Source: Escherichia phage vB_EcoM_G17
Sequence record: MK327931.1
Strand: one strand, 5' to 3'
DNA: 64,000 nt
Of this stretch, positions 6,089-64,000 are shown in pieces (position 1 is the first letter of the stretch; each line of letters begins with the position of its first letter). The notes beneath the pieces were generated by a model. That model saw only the letters and a program-made list of their open reading frames with translations. It had not been told where the DNA came from and searched no databases. Made by a program: the position numbers and the translations under genes.

Positions 6089-6778
6089 TTAATCCATTTT
6101 AAGCTTGTTTAGACAGAATGAAATCTGGATTGCTTCACGTGCTGCATCAAACAGTGGGTGATGTAACTCCAACCCATTAATCCCACACGTATTTGCATAT
6201 GTGATAAATTTATCCAACTGTACCGAAACGATTTCATCCATTTCAATACGAGCTTCTTCATTCAATAAACGTTTCAATGTGCGTGCATTTTCAGGTGCAT
6301 CATACTTCCACAACTCACCAGCGTTCATTAGTTTTAAATGGTTTGCTTGTAAAATACTACAATCGAAGTTACATCCGTTGCCCCAGACTGAATGAGGAAC
6401 TTCTTCACCATAATCATTGTAACGTAATTCTTTCCAGAAATCAACAATACTACTGTATGCAAAAAATCGTCGTGATTGACCATTCGGTCCATACAGTTCA
6501 GGTGCTTTGAGTTTCATAGTACTGGCAACTTCAGAATATGCATTAGAGTATTCTTTCTGACATGTATTCATCCAAAAATCCATTGCACCTGCGTCTGATT
6601 TTAAACCAGCAGCAACTTGATCCTGGTATGGTAATTTAATATATAAGAACTGACGAATGTCATTTTCAGGTTTACTTGGAACTACTACTGCTGCGTAATT
6701 TGGGATAATAATATCATAACCGGAAAGTTCAGGTGTTCCAAGAGCTTCAATATCAACACTAATATGACGACGTTTCAT
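6089..6778 (-). CDS. dexA: exonuclease A-like DEDDh 3'-5' exonuclease
   Basis: motifs DIEALG, NFDCSIL and HHPLFDAARE match the DnaQ-type exo motifs I-III and resemble T4 DexA. Confidence 0.65.
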   Translation of the reverse strand: MKRRHISVDIEALGTPELSGYDIIIPNYAAVVVPSKPENDIRQFLYIKLPYQDQVAAGLKSDAGAMDFWMNTCQKEYSNAYSEVASTMKLKAPELYGPNGQSRRFFAYSSIVDFWKELRYNDYGEEVPHSVWGNGCNFDCSILQANHLKLMNAGELWKYDAPENARTLKRLLNEEARIEMDEIVSVQLDKFITYANTCGINGLELHHPLFDAAREAIQISFCLNKLKMD

Positions 6779-14112: not shown

Positions 14113-14145
14113 ATTATATCACATGTTTTTCTACCATTTCAAAAA
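14113..14145 (-). promoter_or_regulatory. early promoter with extended -10 (TGTGATATAAT)
   Basis: minus-strand TGnTATAAT at 14113-14123, upstream of the start at 14067. Confidence 0.45.
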
Positions 14146-14649
14146 TTCGTTAACATCAAGTTCATACTTCAATGAATCTACCATATGTAGTCCAATCAAA
14201 AACAAACAGTATGATGCAACAGAGCTTCCACGACCTAGACCCCAAAAGATCTCATTTTCTTCCATATAATCAACAAGCCATATCATACATCTTAGTAGCT
14301 TTGTCATATTATAATATTCATATAAATCAAGTTCATACTCAACACGTTTTCGTGCTTCATCGGATGTGCATTTTTGTAAGAAAAAGTCACGCAGATTTAT
14401 ATTGTCGTATACTGGATCATATCGCCACAGTTCATGATTTTTATCATGCTCAATTGTATAATCCAGCATACGTTGTTCTAAGCCAAATTTTTTACAGTTA
14501 TCATTGAATTTCAACCTTTCAGGTTCATCAATTTCCTGCAATTGTAAGTACTGGATATCTGCACCGCAATTGATTGCATAAACAACTGCGTTAAGATTAC
14601 ATTTCACATCACCATTGGGACTTATAAATCTGTTTCCTTGTACTTTCAT
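14131..14649 (-). CDS. small protein homologous to the region of DNA polymerase III alpha (DnaE) just before the catalytic aspartates
   Basis: C-terminal FWGLGRGSSVASYCLFLIGLHMVDSLKYELDVNEFL aligns with E. coli DnaE [35 protein letters not shown]; preceding YELDLYEYYNMTKLL matches ELQVINQMGFPGYFL; the ORF stops before the PDFDVDF catalytic motif. Confidence 0.5.
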   Translation of the reverse strand: MKVQGNRFISPNGDVKCNLNAVVYAINCGADIQYLQLQEIDEPERLKFNDNCKKFGLEQRMLDYTIEHDKNHELWRYDPVYDNINLRDFFLQKCTSDEARKRVEYELDLYEYYNMTKLLRCMIWLVDYMEENEIFWGLGRGSSVASYCLFLIGLHMVDSLKYELDVNEFLKW

Positions 14650-27269: not shown

Positions 27270-28572
<1,303 letters not shown>

Positions 28573-35917: not shown

Positions 35918-36490
35918 TTATTTAGCTTTTTCTTTAACTTCCGCAATACGCTCATTAATTAGTTGAGATACAACTGAGCTATCTACAGAAGATAAAATTT
36001 GTTCTGGTACTAAAGATTTTAAATGTTTAACATAGTTGGAAACACTTTTAAATTCTTTAGTCTGTAATGCTTCTTTGATAATGTCCAAATCTTCTTTAGA
36101 TGAAACAACACGCTCAATAACGACTTCATCTTCTTCCAATTCAGGAGCAAGTTCTTCTGCAATAATTTCAACTTCTTCAGAAACTTTAACTTGTTCTTCA
36201 CTATCAACAACATACTCTTGGATAACTTCTGGTGGTACATTGCGTGATACTTCATCAACACTAATATCTTGTGCAATTTGTTCTTTAATTTCTTCAACAG
36301 GTTTAGCACCACGTTGTTTATAATCTTTGATATTTAGAATTAGCTTATTTGATAAATCAAGTTTATCAATCTCTTCTTCACTAAGTTTAATTACTTCTTC
36401 TAAATCATAACCTTTACTTACTAGTGCACGAATTGTATATAGATCTTGTTTCATTTTTTTATGCTGCTCCATTTGATTCAATTTCTCCAC
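35918..36490 (-). CDS. acidic coiled-coil protein
   Basis: 190-aa Glu-rich ORF. Confidence 0.5.
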   Translation of the reverse strand: MEKLNQMEQHKKMKQDLYTIRALVSKGYDLEEVIKLSEEEIDKLDLSNKLILNIKDYKQRGAKPVEEIKEQIAQDISVDEVSRNVPPEVIQEYVVDSEEQVKVSEEVEIIAEELAPELEEDEVVIERVVSSKEDLDIIKEALQTKEFKSVSNYVKHLKSLVPEQILSSVDSSVVSQLINERIAEVKEKAK

Positions 36491-37178
36491 GTAAAATATA
36501 GTATTGTTCTACACGTTCAATCCACATATTGACTGCATCTTTGAAGTCTTGACCTTCTATGACAAACTCTTGATATTGTAGATTGTTAGGATCTTTTCTT
36601 ACACAGATGAAAATCACACCACGTTCTATATTAGTACCAAACATTTGATTATGGGCTAATGCATATGCTGCAATTTGCATACGATAATTTTCGATTTGTC
36701 CCCACTTCTTAACTTTACGGGAATTTTTATAATCCATAATGGTTGGGATTCCATCATGAACACCTACTAAATCAGTTGTTCCGGCCCATAAACCTTCATA
36801 GTACAATGGGACTTCCTGTCCCCATACTTCATTAATTCTAGGCCATGCTTCTTGCTGAATTTTGTCAGCCATTCTACGTGCAAGAACTCGAATTGGCATA
36901 CCGCCTTCATGGTCTGGCTTTCCTTCCAATCTAAATTCCAAGTTCTCATGCATAAAAGTACCAACTGTACATGCTTCTAATGTAATCTCATTAGCCTTTT
37001 CTTCACCAACAAATTCTCTCCATTTCTTTAAACCTTCGTCATTCGAGGTCGCACTTAGAATTGTTGTTACTGACGGCAGATTACCTGTTGGAGTTGAATA
37101 AAGGCGACCTTCTGGGCCGCCTTCAATTCTATTGTAACCAACATATGTATATCTGCTAACAATTGGTGGTGTGTACAT
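36459..37178 (-). CDS. PD-(D/E)xK nuclease (RecB/Cas4-like fold)
   Basis: TTDLVG ... MDYKNSRK ... QIAAYALA pattern (D, DxK, QxxxY). Confidence 0.5.
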   Translation of the reverse strand: MYTPPIVSRYTYVGYNRIEGGPEGRLYSTPTGNLPSVTTILSATSNDEGLKKWREFVGEEKANEITLEACTVGTFMHENLEFRLEGKPDHEGGMPIRVLARRMADKIQQEAWPRINEVWGQEVPLYYEGLWAGTTDLVGVHDGIPTIMDYKNSRKVKKWGQIENYRMQIAAYALAHNQMFGTNIERGVIFICVRKDPNNLQYQEFVIEGQDFKDAVNMWIERVEQYYILRGEIESNGAA

Positions 37179-37217
37179 CCGTGTACTCCTAATTATAGCA
37201 TTATATTTTAATTTGTC

Positions 37218-44641: not shown

Positions 44642-44995
44642 ATGAATCAATATAACACTATTCCACCATTCATTACTGTAATCCAGTATGATGGTAAAAC
44701 GTTTGTTGGTATCATCAAAATCAAAAGCAAACAGTATACAACTCTTTACTGTTTCGATGATATGGATGATTCAATGCAAGACGAATTGTTAGGTATAGCA
44801 CACGATTGGTGGTGGCAAAGTAATAGAACCATTCCAGTTTGTCTATTCTTTCAAGAAGAGATGGAGAAATTTGAACCGTACACACAGAGATTCGATACAC
44901 CGTCGGTGAATTTCGTATGTGGTCCAGTAGTTTCTTTAAGCAATTTGCCACAGAAACGCATCAAGCGTCGTAATGTGGCTCTTAAGAAGAAGTAA
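44642..44995 (+). CDS. hypothetical protein (plus strand)
   Basis: 117-aa ORF downstream of the palindromic box. Confidence 0.45.
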   Translation: MNQYNTIPPFITVIQYDGKTFVGIIKIKSKQYTTLYCFDDMDDSMQDELLGIAHDWWWQSNRTIPVCLFFQEEMEKFEPYTQRFDTPSVNFVCGPVVSLSNLPQKRIKRRNVALKKK

Positions 44996-45620
44996 GATGT
45001 TCAACTAAAGCATTTAGTTGTACAACAATCATTAAGCTATATGCGTAAGCATGTGGCTTTTTGAAATATCGTAATTTATTTCCTGCTTGGTCAGTGCCTA
45101 TAGTACTATAATCCCATATGGTAGCTTTAACTTCGTCCCATGTGTTCATACTTTGGCACTGCCTTTTTCCTGGGCGAATCATTGCAATAAACATTGCTAG
45201 TTCGTCTATAGATTTAGGCTTCCATACATTTAATAAAGTTACATGTTTTTTAATTTGCGATAGATGTTCTACAATTTCGGGTTCTAACAATAGATCCCAA
45301 TTTGGTTCCTGATTCATTAGTTCTTTTAAATGCTCTCTATCACGAACATACATGTAAGCTGACTGTGAAAGAATATCAACTTTTTGATACCCTAACCTTT
45401 CAGCTTCTTTATATTGTATACTTGCCAATCCAGTGATTGGATCAATAGGTATATTATCAAAATGAACACCACTATTATGGGGGATTAAACCATCCTCCGT
45501 AATTTTTTCAGTACTTCGCACACATGGAAGTTTAGCGATTACGCTTTTACTATCCTTGAAGTCAATGTCAATATCAGTTCGGGCTTTTCTATAATGTTTA
45601 GAATCGGTCGAATCCTGCAT
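44982..45620 (-). CDS. small protein resembling the fingers region of DNA polymerase III alpha (DnaE)
   Basis: ELAMFIAMIRPGK (compare DMIALVALFRPGP), KKPHAYAYSLMIVVQ (compare NKSHSAAYALVSYQ) and YQKVDIL (compare KFDFLGL) in DnaE order. Confidence 0.45.
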   Translation of the reverse strand: MQDSTDSKHYRKARTDIDIDFKDSKSVIAKLPCVRSTEKITEDGLIPHNSGVHFDNIPIDPITGLASIQYKEAERLGYQKVDILSQSAYMYVRDREHLKELMNQEPNWDLLLEPEIVEHLSQIKKHVTLLNVWKPKSIDELAMFIAMIRPGKRQCQSMNTWDEVKATIWDYSTIGTDQAGNKLRYFKKPHAYAYSLMIVVQLNALVEHLTSS

Positions 45621-47971: not shown

Positions 47972-48400
47972 TTAGTACTGCGAATCTTCTTCGTCATCAT
48001 AATATTCTTCATCATCTTGGTCTTCTACCCCATAAAATTCAAGTCCATAAGTTTCACACATCTCTTGAATTTTATCTACATCAGTATCCAGATATGAATC
48101 AAAATTACCACTTAGACTTACTACATCAATAAAAGTTTTCGTGTCAGTACTTGCATAGATGATATCATATTTCAATGATTCTACTTTAGAATCAATTCGT
48201 GTCTGTAATTCATAGATATTAATCCAAGAATCACTATCAATATTACATCTCCATACGTTAGTATCATCCGTTTCTAGCTCAGGTATATAGTCAAGAGAAG
48301 ATACCATGTCATCCATAATACCATCATCGTTCAACAATACATCCATAACTTCTAAAGTTTCTTGGTCACAAATAAAAGCAATACTAGATCTCAATTCCAT
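47972..48400 (-). CDS. hypothetical acidic protein
   Basis: 142-aa ORF, Asp/Glu-rich. Confidence 0.5.
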   Translation of the reverse strand: MELRSSIAFICDQETLEVMDVLLNDDGIMDDMVSSLDYIPELETDDTNVWRCNIDSDSWINIYELQTRIDSKVESLKYDIIYASTDTKTFIDVVSLSGNFDSYLDTDVDKIQEMCETYGLEFYGVEDQDDEEYYDDEEDSQY

Positions 48401-48434: not shown

Positions 48435-48467
48435 ATTATATCACAAACAGCGGGTTTATCCCGCTGT
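48435..48467 (-). promoter_or_regulatory. early promoter with extended -10 (TGTGATATAAT)
   Basis: minus-strand TGnTATAAT about 30 nt upstream of the start at 48400. Confidence 0.45.
48448..48466 (-). terminator. terminator hairpin at the end of uvsW
   Basis: stem cagcggg/cccgctg overlapping the uvsW stop. Confidence 0.4.
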
Positions 48468-49940
48468 GTTTTCCCAATCTTTAACATCTATTATACTATG
48501 AGGATATTGTGCTTCCTTATAGTAAGCTAAACGTTCTCGTAAATGCTTAGCACTATACTTATTAGAACCACTAATATCATATATTTCTACGTGGTCTTTA
48601 TCTTCTGCTCGGCGTAATCCACGTCCAATTGACTGTATAGTTCTTACAAAACTTTTTCCTGGCTCAATCAATACTACATTATATAACCTTGAAATACTAA
48701 TACCAGTACTGGCAACGCCGTATGTCGCAATAAGTATTTTATTATCAGCCCAACGAATTTCACCATAAGATGATTCTCGATCTTTCTTTTTAGTTTCTCC
48801 ACGAACGAATTCTGATTTGGGAATGCCTAAAAATTCACATAGCAACTCACCTGCTTCAAGTCTATCTACTAAAACTAAAGTGTTTCCTGATTCAGATAAC
48901 GCAGATATCAATGACGCTACATATGCCATCCTATCTCTGTCAGTTACTAAGTATTTCAACTCTTCAGCATATGATGCAAACTTCATACTACTTTTTAGTT
49001 TGATGCAATTCACATTACATGTACTTAGTATTTGTTTATCTTGTAATTCCTTTGCAGTTATTTTAAATATAACATCACCAACATTACATTTGATTTTCGC
49101 GGCAACTACCGGATCTTTAGGAATTGTTCCAGTAAGACCCCAACGTAATGGTACGTTATTCATAACTTTAGAAAGTACTTGAACTAATGCGTCACCGCCT
49201 GCACCTTGACACTCATCAACGATAACACAAACTACTCCATCGATAAAATCATTCACGTCTTGTTCAGTTAATTCAATTTCACCTTTCTTGGTTTTCTTCC
49301 ATAGAGAGTTAAATGATTGCCAAGTCGTAATAGTATGTTGGTGACCAAAATCTTTTTGTGAACCATAGAACATGCCAGTATCCAACCCACACATAATGTA
49401 GTCATCATATGTTTGTTGTACTAAGTCAGTACTTGGTACTATTATAACAGAACGTCCATACTCTTGCACTTTCTTTGACAATGCAGCAGTAATGAGAGTT
49501 TTACCTGCACCAGTAGCTGCCAATAGCAGTCCGTGTGGATTAGCCAAACATGCATTAACCGCATTAACTTGATGTTCACGTAGTTTTATGGATTTACCTT
49601 CCATGTGGTGTCCTGCACCGAATACAACATCACTAAAAATATCTTCATCAATGGGGTCAAATTTAAATCCATAATCTACCCTATGATCTACTAATTCAAT
49701 GTCAATCTTAGCTTCATCAAGAATAGGCAATAACTTATCTAACATATGATAATAAGTTGTTCCGCCTAAATTCATAAACTGAACTTTACCATCCCAACGT
49801 CCAATACGTCCTGCTGGTGTGAACTTTGCATATGGTAACACATATTCAGTTGCACGAATCATCTTTTGTCTAATTGAGGGATCAAGTCCCTCAAATTTAC
49901 AATTCACCTCATCCAATAAGGTTAACTTACAAGTTTTCAT
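48456..49940 (-). CDS. uvsW: UvsW-like SF2 helicase
   Basis: Walker A ATGAGKT, Walker B IVDECQ, helicase C-terminal motifs; 494 aa. Confidence 0.8.
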   Translation of the reverse strand: MKTCKLTLLDEVNCKFEGLDPSIRQKMIRATEYVLPYAKFTPAGRIGRWDGKVQFMNLGGTTYYHMLDKLLPILDEAKIDIELVDHRVDYGFKFDPIDEDIFSDVVFGAGHHMEGKSIKLREHQVNAVNACLANPHGLLLAATGAGKTLITAALSKKVQEYGRSVIIVPSTDLVQQTYDDYIMCGLDTGMFYGSQKDFGHQHTITTWQSFNSLWKKTKKGEIELTEQDVNDFIDGVVCVIVDECQGAGGDALVQVLSKVMNNVPLRWGLTGTIPKDPVVAAKIKCNVGDVIFKITAKELQDKQILSTCNVNCIKLKSSMKFASYAEELKYLVTDRDRMAYVASLISALSESGNTLVLVDRLEAGELLCEFLGIPKSEFVRGETKKKDRESSYGEIRWADNKILIATYGVASTGISISRLYNVVLIEPGKSFVRTIQSIGRGLRRAEDKDHVEIYDISGSNKYSAKHLRERLAYYKEAQYPHSIIDVKDWENTAG

Positions 49941-49955
49941 CCATGATTACCTTTA

Positions 49956-50774
49956 TTAATTAGTTCGAGTATTATATTCGTACTCAAATGTATATACTAA
50001 ATCTTTATCACAGTTAGGGTTACTTGCATCTAAAATGTCACTATTAGTAATCATCCATTCAATGTAATTCAATGGAACTGTACTCATTGGCTCACCTTTG
50101 TGTTTACCAAATGGCATGAATTGATAACGCATTGGTGTGTTGCAGAAAGTTACAATTTGCTCACCAATATCACCATTAGGTTCGATATGTCCACGTTCGA
50201 TTGCAATTTCAACTAATTTGATTAGAACCTGATAACACATAAACACATCGTCTTTTGCTGCGTGTGCATTAACAGGTCGATGAACATCACGATAACATCC
50301 AAACTTATACCACAAATAACTTAGAGTTAAGTTTTTAAATTCAATATCTTCTGCGAACATTTTCTTAGCAAGACGAAGGGTACAAATCCATTTATTTTCA
50401 TCAAGTAAGTACTGTGAAATTGAGTTACGATATTTATATTCGTTATCTACCATCATTCTACGGTCAAATTGTACATTATGACCAACAAAATACTTACGGC
50501 ATCCCATAAGTGCATCAATGTTATCTAAATCATCTTTATACCCAACACAATTAGCTACATCCTCAGTACTGATAAAGTGCACAGCAGATGCCTCTGGTGG
50601 AATATCTTTCAAGGGTTTGTATCTCAATGTATAGTTATCAATAGTATCAATGTTTTCATGTGAAGTATGTGGATACGAGATACTAAATTCAATAATATCA
50701 TCTTCACTCTCAACCCCAGTAGTTTCAGTATCTAGAACTGCTACATTTGATAAAAACTCATTTAATTTTGTCAT
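49956..50774 (-). CDS. DEDDh 3'-5' exonuclease (DnaQ/RNase T-like)
   Basis: LDTETTG (exo I), GHNVQFDRRM (exo II), HAAKDDVFMC (exo III). Confidence 0.7.
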   Translation of the reverse strand: MTKLNEFLSNVAVLDTETTGVESEDDIIEFSISYPHTSHENIDTIDNYTLRYKPLKDIPPEASAVHFISTEDVANCVGYKDDLDNIDALMGCRKYFVGHNVQFDRRMMVDNEYKYRNSISQYLLDENKWICTLRLAKKMFAEDIEFKNLTLSYLWYKFGCYRDVHRPVNAHAAKDDVFMCYQVLIKLVEIAIERGHIEPNGDIGEQIVTFCNTPMRYQFMPFGKHKGEPMSTVPLNYIEWMITNSDILDASNPNCDKDLVYTFEYEYNTRTN

Positions 50775-50821
50775 TTTATTCTCGCATAGAAAAAGGACGC
50801 GATATGCGTCCTTAATGATAA

Positions 50822-51283
50822 TTATTCTAAACGTGCATCCTCAATACCAGCGGCACGTAGTCTCACAATATTGTTTAACTGAAAAGCTTTCATCTCTAAG
50901 GATTTAACAATACTTGAATATGTATTTCTTATATAAGATACCTCGTTTATAAGTTCTGCTAACTCACAAACATCTTTATCACCTTCAACATACTTTTTAC
51001 AGTCAGATGAAGATAGTGCACGGCGGTATCCTTCGAGAAAGTATTTGAACTTCTCGGCTTGTACCTGACGCATTTCAATTTCTAACATTTCCAATACTGC
51101 TTCAAGTTCTTGAAGCTGGCTTAGACGCGTCTCATGCCAGCCAGGAATCTCTTGAGCAATTTTTTCAATGATGCCAATCTTCTTTACTTCACGACGAGCT
51201 TCTTCAACTTCGTTGTTAAAGAACTCAATCATTTCAATAATTTTAGATTTATCATCTTTGATAATCCAATGCCAAGGTTTCAT
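50822..51283 (-). CDS. uvsY: UvsY-like recombination mediator
   Basis: size, position next to uvsX, and C-terminal similarity to T4 UvsY (DKDV..., amphipathic C-terminal helix). Confidence 0.5.
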   Translation of the reverse strand: MKPWHWIIKDDKSKIIEMIEFFNNEVEEARREVKKIGIIEKIAQEIPGWHETRLSQLQELEAVLEMLEIEMRQVQAEKFKYFLEGYRRALSSSDCKKYVEGDKDVCELAELINEVSYIRNTYSSIVKSLEMKAFQLNNIVRLRAAGIEDARLE

Positions 51284-52401
51284 TATTCCTCACTAATATC
51301 CACATCAGTACCAAAAGTTTCATCACCTTTTTCTTCTTCTTTAACTTCTTCAATCAAAGGATGATTTTTAAATTGATGCATTACCAAATCAAGACATGAA
51401 TCTTCATTACGCATCCACTCTTTGCGATATTTTAGAATCTGTTCGCCAGTTACAATATCAACATACAATAGACGGTTACCTGATTTAGTGATTAGACCGT
51501 ATTTTTCAAACATATCTAGTAGACCACTACGTGGGTCCATACCTTTATCCCAAGGAATTTTAATTTCTACATCTTCGAACGGCTTGTTGTAACGAGTCTT
51601 CATGACTTTACATTTAGCACGAATACCATTTACTTCGGAAGTTTTATTTCCGTCTTCATCTTCTTTAAGTTTTAATTTACCCATTGCGATAACCATAGAT
51701 GAAGCATAAATCAAGCCACTACCACCTGAAACTTTAGGATCTGGGTTAAACATGTCCTGAGATTCATAACTGTGGTTAACGCAAACCATACCAATGTTCA
51801 ATGAACCAATAGAGTTTACACAGTTTGTGATATATGCTTTAAGCTGTTTGGGTTTATGACCCATGTCACCTTTAAGGTTACCCGCTTTCATTTGATCATT
51901 GGCTACTTCAGTGTTTAGCATACCAATTGAATCAATAATAAACAATACTTTTTGACGTTCATCTTTAGGTGTATTTTCGTATTCTTTACGATATCCTTCA
52001 ATGAACTCATAGGTGAATTTTGCAACGTCACCAATCATACCCATATTGACTTTCAAAAGTTTTTCTTCAGAAGTGTCAACACCAAGTGCTTGAAGCCAAT
52101 CTGAATCCAATGCGTTCTCTGAGTCAATCATAACAACAAAGATGCCTTGTTTTTGAGCTTCACGTGCAATATTACCAGATACGATAAAAGATTTACCACT
52201 ACCTGATTCACCAGCAAACATCGTTACTTTGCCTAGTGGGATACCACGGTCAAAATAGCCACTGATGCGATAATTTAGTGCATAGTTACCAGTACTAACC
52301 CATGTATCTGGATCATGAAAACCAACACTAACACCAGTATTCTTTTTAACACTACCAGTACTGTTTTTAAGAATGTTCGCAAAACCACTTGTCATTTTCA
52401 T
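51283..52401 (-). CDS. uvsX: UvsX recombinase (RecA family)
   Basis: Walker A GESGSGKS, RecA core; 372 aa. Confidence 0.85.
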   Translation of the reverse strand: MKMTSGFANILKNSTGSVKKNTGVSVGFHDPDTWVSTGNYALNYRISGYFDRGIPLGKVTMFAGESGSGKSFIVSGNIAREAQKQGIFVVMIDSENALDSDWLQALGVDTSEEKLLKVNMGMIGDVAKFTYEFIEGYRKEYENTPKDERQKVLFIIDSIGMLNTEVANDQMKAGNLKGDMGHKPKQLKAYITNCVNSIGSLNIGMVCVNHSYESQDMFNPDPKVSGGSGLIYASSMVIAMGKLKLKEDEDGNKTSEVNGIRAKCKVMKTRYNKPFEDVEIKIPWDKGMDPRSGLLDMFEKYGLITKSGNRLLYVDIVTGEQILKYRKEWMRNEDSCLDLVMHQFKNHPLIEEVKEEEKGDETFGTDVDISEE

Positions 52402-52470: not shown

Positions 52471-53523
52471 TTACTTACCTTGTTGTTTCAAACGAGCAAC
52501 TAGTGCAGATGCAGATAGTTGTTCTTTTGGTGCTTCAGGAGTGGTTGCTGCTGGGGTAGCGACTGGAGTTACTGGAGCAGCTTGTGGGGCTGGTGTAACT
52601 GGAGCAGTAGGTGCTACTGGTGCAGGTGCTGACTCTTGTTGTACTGGAGCAGGAGTTGGTTTTGATTCAGTAACAGTTCCAGAGTTAGGTTTTGGTACAC
52701 CTGCTGGACGATATGCAAATGCCCAACGTGCTGGATCATATGCTTCACCATTTACTGATGCTTCGAACATTTCTTCAATTGCTTTCAACTCTTCTGGAGT
52801 TGGTTGTTTTGGCATAAAATCATTTAGATTGTATAGGCCATATTTTTCAATTGCTGCTAGTTCTTCTTCGTTTAGTGGACGCTCAGACATGGAGAATTGA
52901 GACATGTCGTAGCTATTATAACCACCACCATTCTTAGTTTTAACAATACCAAAATCACGACCTTGAACGTAGTGAGTTGGAGACTCTTTGATGCCTGGGT
53001 TTAGCAGGATGGATTTAACTTTATCAAAGATATCTTTGTTAGCCAGAATACGACGAATTGGATTTTCTGGTGCAATGTCGTCTTTTACTGCAACGCTATC
53101 AGGAGCAATAAAACATTGCATTAGATAGGTTTTCTTCTTCCAGTAACGACCAGCCATTGCTTTTAGTTCTTCGTTCCCTGTTTCATTCGCACTTTGGAAC
53201 CATTGACGTACTTCTTTCAGAACCGGACAGGATTTAGGAACCCACATTTCGTTACAAGGTACTTGAACGGTAACTTTATCAGTGTGCATACCGACTACAC
53301 CATTGAAAGTTAGGTTAATCATGTCACGTTCACGCCAGAAGAATGGGTTAGACTCATCTGCATCTGGTAGAAAACGTAGGTTTAGTGGTTCGTTATAAGG
53401 TACGTTCCAGAAAGCTAAGAACGAATCAGCTTTACGCTCGCCAGTAAATGTACCATTCTTTTGAGCTTCTGCTTTTTCTTGTTCTGCTTTTAGGTGTGCA
53501 CGAATTTCAGCTAGAGATTTCAT
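52471..53523 (-). CDS. 32: single-stranded DNA-binding protein (gp32-like)
   Basis: N-terminal LRFLPDADESNPFF block resembling T4 gp32 (IRFLPSKNDEQAPF); Pro/Thr/Ala-rich C-terminal linker. Confidence 0.6.
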   Translation of the reverse strand: MKSLAEIRAHLKAEQEKAEAQKNGTFTGERKADSFLAFWNVPYNEPLNLRFLPDADESNPFFWRERDMINLTFNGVVGMHTDKVTVQVPCNEMWVPKSCPVLKEVRQWFQSANETGNEELKAMAGRYWKKKTYLMQCFIAPDSVAVKDDIAPENPIRRILANKDIFDKVKSILLNPGIKESPTHYVQGRDFGIVKTKNGGGYNSYDMSQFSMSERPLNEEELAAIEKYGLYNLNDFMPKQPTPEELKAIEEMFEASVNGEAYDPARWAFAYRPAGVPKPNSGTVTESKPTPAPVQQESAPAPVAPTAPVTPAPQAAPVTPVATPAATTPEAPKEQLSASALVARLKQQGK

Positions 53524-53650: not shown

Positions 53651-58908
<5,258 letters not shown>

Positions 58909-62992: not shown

Positions 62993-64000
62993 TTACCAAG
63001 TGAAGAATCCATTGTTTACTGACGCAGTACTTTTTTCATGAATACCAATATCCATATCCAAAATACCAAAAATATTCTCTAATTTTTTAGTTAGAACAAT
63101 CTCTTCCATTTTTTCAGTATCAAATGGTAGTTCCAAGAACCATTCTGGTAGATACTCAACACAGTCAATTGGATATCCAACAGCTTTAATTCCCATAGGA
63201 TTATCTTTTAAGTTACAGACAATTACTTTTGTTCCATCTGTTACTTCTGGAACAGATTTATCATCATAAACTTCACGTAGACGGTTCCATTGGATACCAG
63301 CAAGAACGTGACCAACTTTACACTTACCAGTTAGCTGATATTCAGCCTCTAAATTAGTGTAGTTTTTTACAGTTTTTGGTGAACCTTTTTCATGTACAGG
63401 CATATCCTTAAATACGTCCTTAAACTCACGTACACGCTGTTTTAGCTGCTGTTCACTCTCACCTACCAGTAATGCGATTAGAGTCTCTTCTAGGAAGTTC
63501 TGGATGTATTTTGGCGTGTCTGAGCGTTTAATTTCAAGACCCATCGCTTTGATTTCACCTGGTTTACCATCAATATCTTTACGGAACCCATCTTCCCAGT
63601 ACTTCAGAATTGCATAACGTTTTTTCTTCAAGAATAGGCCACGTGAACCAACCATCTCAAGGTCTGCACCAACAATCTTACCTTTTTCAATACCAGTGTT
63701 GAACATCTCATGCATAAATGATGGGAAAGATTCACCAACTTCTTCACCAATTTTAATATACATATCAACAATCTCTTCTTTAGATAGATTATATGGAATA
63801 CCTTGTTCTTTCAGATAATGCGTTACACTAAAGTAAACTGAGTCAGTATCACCATAAATTACTGAACCACCTTGGTGATTATATACACCAGTAGTAATCT
63901 CATTGATACGACTTGCCATATGTTTGGTCATAGAACGTCCAGTTAATGTTACGGATTGACCTAAACGTTTGTCAAAGAAACGAGAACCTTTGTTCAATAG
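62993..64000 (-). CDS. 43: DNA polymerase (family B, gp43-like), C-terminal part; gene continues beyond the window end
   Basis: Pol B motif C YGDTDS near the start of the fragment; frame open to position 64000. Confidence 0.85.
   Translation of the reverse strand, partial: LLNKGSRFFDKRLGQSVTLTGRSMTKHMASRINEITTGVYNHQGGSVIYGDTDSVYFSVTHYLKEQGIPYNLSKEEIVDMYIKIGEEVGESFPSFMHEMFNTGIEKGKIVGADLEMVGSRGLFLKKKRYAILKYWEDGFRKDIDGKPGEIKAMGLEIKRSDTPKYIQNFLEETLIALLVGESEQQLKQRVREFKDVFKDMPVHEKGSPKTVKNYTNLEAEYQLTGKCKVGHVLAGIQWNRLREVYDDKSVPEVTDGTKVIVCNLKDNPMGIKAVGYPIDCVEYLPEWFLELPFDTEKMEEIVLTKKLENIFGILDMDIGIHEKSTASVNNGFFTW

Follow-up and report, generated by a model that had tools for sequence, protein, structure and literature searches.

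A gene on the reverse strand of a 64,000-nucleotide stretch of DNA from Escherichia phage vB_EcoM_G17 (MK327931.1; the whole stretch is referred to here as the window) probably encodes an ExoX-like 3'-5' exonuclease that trims DNA ends and acts with the UvsW-like helicase encoded next to it in recombination, repair and recombination-dependent replication; we place the probability of this overall reading at roughly 0.6. That the protein is an ExoX-family 3'-5' DNA exonuclease is highly likely, and that its main role lies in the recombination and repair module with UvsW has about an even chance. Positions of the gene, its domains and motifs, its neighbours and the other nucleases of the window are collected in the table.

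Features of the window, with positions counted from its first nucleotide
Feature	Position	Strand	Remarks
Other exonuclease	6089-6778	-	Pfam PF16473, Rv2179c-like 3'-5' exoribonuclease, E 4e-9; PHROG 255 'exonuclease', E 2e-32
RNase HI	~27270-27700	-	
PD-(D/E)XK exonuclease	~36460-37180	-	PBECO4 gp475; PHROG 298
UvsW-like SF2 helicase	48456..49940	-	494 aa; T4 UvsW match; ResIII plus Helicase_C
Predicted ExoX-like 3'-5' exonuclease gene	49956..50774	-	ORF, ATG start, 272 aa plus stop
C-terminal ExoX-type domain	49959..50189	-	Residues 196-272
FGKHKG motif	50094-50111	-	In the C-terminal domain, which also carries Y237/W240
N-terminal DnaQ-fold DEDDh nuclease domain	50190..50774	-	Residues 1-195
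Exo III	50247-50264	-	H171-x4-D176
Exo II	50463-50480	-	H99-N100...D104
Exo I	50724-50732	-	D15/E17
Terminator-like hairpin	50793..50813	-	AAGGACGC-loop-GCGTCCTT then T-run; between uvsY stop and exonuclease ATG
UvsY-like recombination mediator	50822..51283	-	PHROG 231, E 2e-25; Pfam UvsY, E 2e-5
UvsX/RecA-like recombinase	51283..52401	-	PHROG 97, E 5e-71; Pfam RecA
gp32-like ssDNA-binding protein	52471..53523	-	PHROG 1192, E 1.9e-101; Pfam gp32
T4 RNase H/FEN-like 5'-3' exonuclease	~57860-58760	-	

The gene is real, as an earlier sequence-only reading of this DNA had claimed: its product carries a Pfam RNase_T/DEDDh domain (PF00929) at residues 13-184 with a score above the curated cutoff (E 6.7e-15), and its database homologues number 730 at E<=1e-5, so that the match lies far beyond chance. 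The source of the window is an Asteriusvirus jumbo coliphage, a group with genomes of about 350 kb. Over 5.6 kb around the gene, the DNA matches Escherichia phage Sharanji and vB_Eco_slurp01 at 100% identity, and PBECO4, 121Q, phAPEC6 and other Asteriusvirus jumbo coliphages at 99-100%; the protein itself is 100% identical in Sharanji (exoX), slurp01 and PBECO4 (gp495). It is matched over its full length by PHROG 192 (residues 1-269, E 1.9e-61), whose orthologues in Asteriusvirus, Alcyoneusvirus and other Rak2-like jumbo phages (PBECO4 gp495, 121Q gp9, K64-1 gp150 and GAP32) share the gene order of the window, with no difference, the window being one of these phages.

The gene is thus already known as an annotation in published genomes, dozens of them from Asteriusvirus and Rak2-like phages, under labels that include 'exoX: exodeoxyribonuclease (10)', 'exodeoxyribonuclease X', 'DNA polymerase III epsilon subunit', 'putative exonuclease' and, as the RefSeq and PHROG-derived label, 'DNA polymerase exonuclease subunit'. 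The Sharanji paper counts it among the repair proteins, with no more than the name 'exodeoxyribonuclease (WNN14613.1)' (PMC11895373). A literature search found no paper characterising the exonuclease of this phage clade biochemically or genetically, and neither the PA5oct omics paper nor a jumbo-phage comparative paper discusses the gene. This prior annotation, the C-terminal domain of the protein and the conserved, non-inserted position of the gene had all been missed by the sequence-only reading.

The nuclease domain has the full set of residues expected of its superfamily. All three exo motifs are complete and conserved in an alignment of 68 family members that range from 83% down to 25% identity, which answers the concern that the motif residues might not hold up on alignment. 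D15, E17, H99, N100, H171 and D176 are invariant in this alignment, as are G223, G227 and Y237 in the C-terminal part, and D104 is an aspartate in 67 of the 68 sequences. The catalytic residues, the profile score and the RNase H-like alpha/beta fold of the AF2 model (pLDDT 95.4, pTM 0.90) together place the protein in the DnaQ-like DEDDh superfamily.

The C-terminal domain falls in a different Pfam class from that of E. coli ExoX; residues 219-242 match QSregVF_b, whose cutoff of 22 bits they pass with 25.1, rather than ExoX-like_C, which stays below threshold (16 against 26.5). Searches of PDB sequences with the domain, as a single sequence or as a profile, gave no match; the best profile alignment, to plastid PAP3/pTAC10 (PDB 8qma_F, residues 227-252), is non-significant at E 0.12 and was discarded. 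This weak alignment spans the Y-x2-W...D-x-D-L segment of the domain. Nothing functional was found in the literature on DUF3820, QSregVF, PF12843 or PF20600. We know of no solved structure or assigned function for the ExoX-type C-terminal domain, even in E. coli.

Placement within the DEDDh enzymes is best seen when the HMM of the phage family is scored on the products of the exoX, dnaQ, rnt and orn genes of E. coli MG1655. ExoX scores 137 bits and is matched end to end (residues 3-218 of 220), DnaQ 75 bits and RNase T 39 bits over their nuclease domains only (residues 5-178 and 20-201, respectively), and Orn 17 bits over the Exo I region only (residues 6-37). Pairwise BLASTP also aligns the phage protein with ExoX end to end, at 24% identity and E 9e-18, and pairs MPFGKHKGEPMSTVP-LNYIEWMITN of the phage protein with FTFGKYRGKAVSDVAERDPGYLRWLFNN of ExoX. 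On the C-terminus of ExoX, a profile built from the C-terminal 77 residues only reaches 31-35 bits, whereas none of 2000 shuffles exceeds 7.7, and ExoX is also the best PDB sequence match of the whole protein. It is the end-to-end match, the ExoX-type C-terminus and this PDB match that lead us to the ExoX branch.

The relationship is a distant one. The NCBIfam ExoX equivalog NF005937 gives 55.1 bits, well short of its 202-bit cutoff, and the NCBIfam RNase T and Orn models show no match at E<=0.01. Comparison of the AF2 model with known structures gives the highest figures for the exonuclease domains of Pol III epsilon (1j53; 20.6) and PolC (20.5), followed by ExoX (4fzx; 19.5), the DinG exonuclease domain (19.2), TREX1 (about 17.4), RNase T (16.8) and, at 13.1 each, REXO2/Orn and T4 DexA; the modelled fold would thus be that of a DNA-type DEDDh enzyme, in a comparison that has no power to separate ExoX from epsilon. 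By sequence, the protein belongs to the ExoX branch as a distant member and has the two-domain architecture of ExoX, and it is not an orthologue of the bacterial enzyme. Recent capture of a host exoX gene is unlikely at only 24% protein identity.

E. coli ExoX (b1844; PDB 4FZX; NF005937) shares with the phage protein both the DEDDh nuclease and a C-terminal domain of the form FGK(Y/H)(R/K)G...Y(L/I)xW, and its catalytic residues D6, E8, D85, H134 and D139 correspond with D15, E17, D104, H171 and D176. The phage protein is 52 residues longer, in part through an insertion of ~15-20 residues that follows Exo II (around 108-127), is confined to the jumbo-phage clade and is absent from shorter homologues and from ExoX. 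In ExoX a complementary-strand site formed by R87, K101 and R104 makes the enzyme competent on dsDNA (PMC3753628). These residues correspond with R106, R134 and K137 of the phage protein, and a basic residue (Lys or Arg) occupies positions 134 and 137 in 64 of the 68 aligned sequences. Where ExoX has the wedge Leu12-Gln13, the phage protein has Val21-Glu22; in the family the first position is V, L, I or A, which preserves its hydrophobic character, and the second is mostly Asp, a difference that may mean that melting of dsDNA ends is not the same as in ExoX. By analogy with ExoX, we predict 3'-5' activity on ssDNA and probably also on duplex ends. The phage protein retains the basic residues with which ExoX holds the complementary strand. 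The genetic contexts differ, the phage gene lying in a UvsX/UvsY/UvsW block whereas ExoX is a host enzyme, with roles in mismatch repair, UV repair and recombination (PMC3753628).

The gene does lie between uvsW and the uvsY-like gene, as the sequence-only reading had it, but it cannot be described as inserted there, since the order is ancestral and shows no recent insertion. The helicase gene, on the same strand, starts 15 nt after the stop codon of the exonuclease, and its product has T4 UvsW as best PDB match (2oca, E 1.9e-24), with residues 39-459 collinear with 37-457. In the PBECO4 RefSeq record the helicase starts later (468 aa), leaving a 93-nt gap, and this start is probably mis-called. 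The order gp32-UvsX-UvsY-exonuclease-UvsW is found in all 19 IMG/VR loci (50-100% identity) that were obtained by searching viral contigs with a 14-sequence alignment; with the single exonuclease protein as query, the identical 121Q locus alone was recovered. In the Alcyoneusvirus K64-1, a Klebsiella phage at 61% identity, the order is gp32-UvsX-(homing endonuclease)-UvsY-exonuclease-helicase, and the order is kept even in a metagenomic relative at 40% identity (Logan SRR21686213, locus L008).

Several features of the neighbouring genes may be recorded here. The block attracts selfish elements, as judged from the UvsW-like helicase gene of the 40%-identity relative (L008 6832-10638), which is split by an intein/LAGLIDADG element together with a TnsA-like ORF, and from the gene annotated 'endonuclease' between uvsX and uvsY in K64-1 (L004 3334-4482). 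Directly downstream of the helicase gene of the window is a 142-aa ORF (47972-48400, minus strand; PHROG 16541) whose product has a strongly acidic C-terminal tail, EDQDDEEYYDDEEDSQY; T4 has small uvsW-associated ORFs at the corresponding position. The gp32-like protein ends in a long low-complexity tail rich in Pro, Ala, Thr and Val (…PTPAPVQQESAPAPVAPTAPVTPAPQAAPVTPVATPAATTPEAP…; 52471-52700, minus strand), and it is here that the GC content of the window peaks locally (0.389 at 52-54 kb). T4 gp32 has an acidic C-terminal tail instead.

Beyond about 40% identity the linkage is lost, and coupling to UvsW is therefore not obligatory. In relatives at ~30-35% identity the association with uvsY and uvsW is gone; the homologue adjoins DNA ligase in the PA5oct-like phage Paride and PrkA/SpoVR-type or topoisomerase genes in metagenomic giants, and is found in the early regions of small Pseudomonas siphophages. 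The position of the gene is thus ancestral for the enterobacterial Rak2-like lineage, on the evidence of these comparisons, and not universal for the family. Within the block the exonuclease is the fastest-diverging gene, with 50-62% identity across 18 related viral contigs compared with 76-81% for UvsW, 64-77% for UvsY and 66-92% for UvsX. When 50,697 phage records were surveyed by tblastn, homologues came from jumbo phages and from siphophages, those of Pseudomonas among them; T4-like phages were absent both from the tally of organisms and from the 40 matches listed. In T4, uvsW and uvsY also lie close together, with small ORFs alone between them and no known ExoX-like gene.

The space between uvsY and the exonuclease gene is occupied by a hairpin that is unique in the window. 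As RNA it reads AAGGACGC-AUAUC-GCGUCCUU followed by UUUCU, it is matched by a terminator scan, and its fold has an energy of -13 kcal/mol (z -2.55). The same stem, with variable loop and T-run, is present in K64-1 (L004 4953-4976) and in 18 of the 19 related viral loci (L017-L035); the exception is GAP32, in which ~950 bp are inserted at the hairpin site. The stem is invariant across genera whose flanking proteins share only 50-77% identity, and such invariance without covariation could mean that it is recognised in a sequence-specific manner rather than serving as a plain terminator. The start codon of the exonuclease follows the hairpin within about 25 nt, which leaves no room for a promoter, so that the exonuclease and uvsW would be expressed by read-through. 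A sigma-70 promoter scan was at chance level (25 found, 25.1 expected), and Rfam gave nothing credible in 48-54 kb. The hairpin may attenuate expression of the exonuclease and UvsW relative to the stoichiometric proteins gp32, UvsX and UvsY; a role in the mRNA stability of the upstream transcript is equally possible.

The phage carries a large nuclease complement, comprising PD-(D/E)XK, RNase HI and FEN-like enzymes, two DEDD enzymes and the exonuclease domain of a family-B polymerase. The claim of two exonucleases holds, the gene at 6089-6778 being real and belonging to a separate DEDD family; its product is of the T4 DexA/Rv2179c-like type, with a Pfam and PHROG assignment different from that of the ExoX-like exonuclease, and the ExoX-like family profile detects no sequence relationship to it. 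Two ORFs on the minus strand are annotated 'DNA polymerase', those of PBECO4 gp449 (~14131-14649, 172 aa), whose Pfam similarity to the Pol III alpha NTPase region is weak (E 1.9e-9), and of PBECO4 gp488 (~44980-45620, 212 aa), with no Pfam match; each is in its own small PHROG and is too short to be a polymerase.

One alternative to a role in recombination is a general nuclease that degrades DNA, whether host DNA for nucleotide salvage or competing or defence-related DNA, with its place in the block being historical. The many unrelated contexts of the homologues in other phages fit such a role, as do the faster divergence of the gene and its position behind a terminator-like hairpin; a 350-kb genome also implies a high nucleotide demand, and the window encodes RNR and DHFR as well as the other nucleases. 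Against this, ExoX-type enzymes are distributive end-trimmers and as such poorly suited to bulk degradation (PMC3753628), and the gene order is strictly kept in the lineage down to 40% identity. PADLOC matched only a generic CRISPR-associated DEDDh domain model, and with no specific evidence in its favour we set aside a defence or anti-defence function. We consider a general degradative role improbable.

Several GenBank and PHROG labels ('DNA polymerase exonuclease subunit', 'DNA polymerase III epsilon subunit') would make the protein a separate proofreading subunit of the phage replicase, in the manner of Pol III epsilon. The replicase (PBECO4 gp512), however, is a family-B polymerase of the T4/RB69 type with a DNA_pol_B_exo1 domain of its own, in which the exonuclease motifs FDIE (DxE), FDIPY (FD) and Y-x3-D, aligned to RB69 gp43, are intact. 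The C-terminal segment with which epsilon (DnaQ; PDB 1J53) binds alpha and the clamp has no counterpart in the phage protein, whose C-terminal domain is instead of the ExoX type, and the NCBIfam DnaQ equivalog cutoffs are all missed by a wide margin. The Pol III alpha-like ORF is much too small to supply the polymerase, and the exonuclease gene sits with the recombination genes, some 12 kb away from polB; the latter begins near window position 63000, with its 3' end at the right window edge. A proofreading subunit is therefore quite improbable, and the 'polymerase subunit' and 'Pol III epsilon' labels are probably misnomers; the functional label on PHROG 192 looks unreliable, although membership of that family is direct.

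The suggestion of an RNase T or oligoribonuclease analogue, which would mature phage tRNAs or clear short RNA or primer fragments, draws on the name of the Pfam family (RNase_T), the 'RNase' label of the Salmonella phage Munch homologue in its GenBank record, the tRNAs encoded by the phage (PMC11895373) and the frequent activity of DEDDh enzymes on both RNA and DNA, but it is most improbable for a protein that lacks family-level similarity to RNase T and Orn, favours ExoX over both domains and has a C-terminal domain of the ExoX type.

Our preferred reading, an ExoX-like exonuclease acting in recombination, is consistent with the fixed position of the gene between uvsY and a UvsW-type helicase gene and with the 15-nt gap that separates it from the latter; it is from these features that we infer a role in the recombination machinery. 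The order gp32-uvsX-uvsY-exonuclease-uvsW is locked in close and moderately distant relatives, and recombination, including recombination-dependent replication as the sequence-only reading had proposed, is the best-supported role. The protein would be a 3'-5' exonuclease that depends on metal, belongs to the ExoX branch of the DnaQ/DEDDh superfamily and removes nucleotides from free 3' ends of ssDNA and, by analogy with ExoX, probably of duplex DNA too, as part of the phage machinery for recombination, repair and recombination-dependent replication. Its probable partner is the UvsW-like helicase; on branched DNA remodelled by UvsW, the substrates for trimming by the exonuclease would be 3' tails, flaps or mismatched invading ends.

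A more elaborate version, conceivable but rather doubtful, is that the two proteins form a dedicated machine, a split analogue of WRN, DinG or MrfAB that would process 3' ends at D-loops and stalled forks during the recombination-dependent replication of very large phage genomes; here the KHKG-containing C-terminal domain might be a docking module for UvsW, gp32 or UvsY, and the hairpin might set the ratio of enzyme to filament proteins.

The importance of these findings goes little beyond the tidying of annotation, and their value lies in a better label and in a testable hypothesis of a helicase-exonuclease pair. 'ExoX-like 3'-5' exonuclease' fits the protein better than 'Pol III epsilon' or 'DNA polymerase exonuclease subunit', and the partners of the phage C-terminal domain might reveal what the ExoX-type domain binds. 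We know of no such exonuclease gene in T4, the model for UvsX/UvsY/UvsW recombination; the jumbo phages thus add a predicted 3'-end-trimming activity to the classical module, and this addition is genetically testable.

Coupling of a DEDDh 3'-5' exonuclease to a repair or recombination helicase has parallels in B. subtilis MrfA/MrfB, in the DinG exonuclease-helicase and in WRN, in all of which the two are genetically coupled, as here. Of these, MrfA/MrfB provides a working analogy for a helicase and DEDDh-exonuclease pair (PMC11194089), and the phage exonuclease and UvsW-type helicase could be a two-gene counterpart of that pair or of the fusions represented by DinG and WRN. The likeness is one of analogy only, since the phage helicase is a UvsW-type SF2 enzyme and not MrfA, DinG or RecQ, and MrfB, as far as compared, is without the ExoX-type C-terminal domain.
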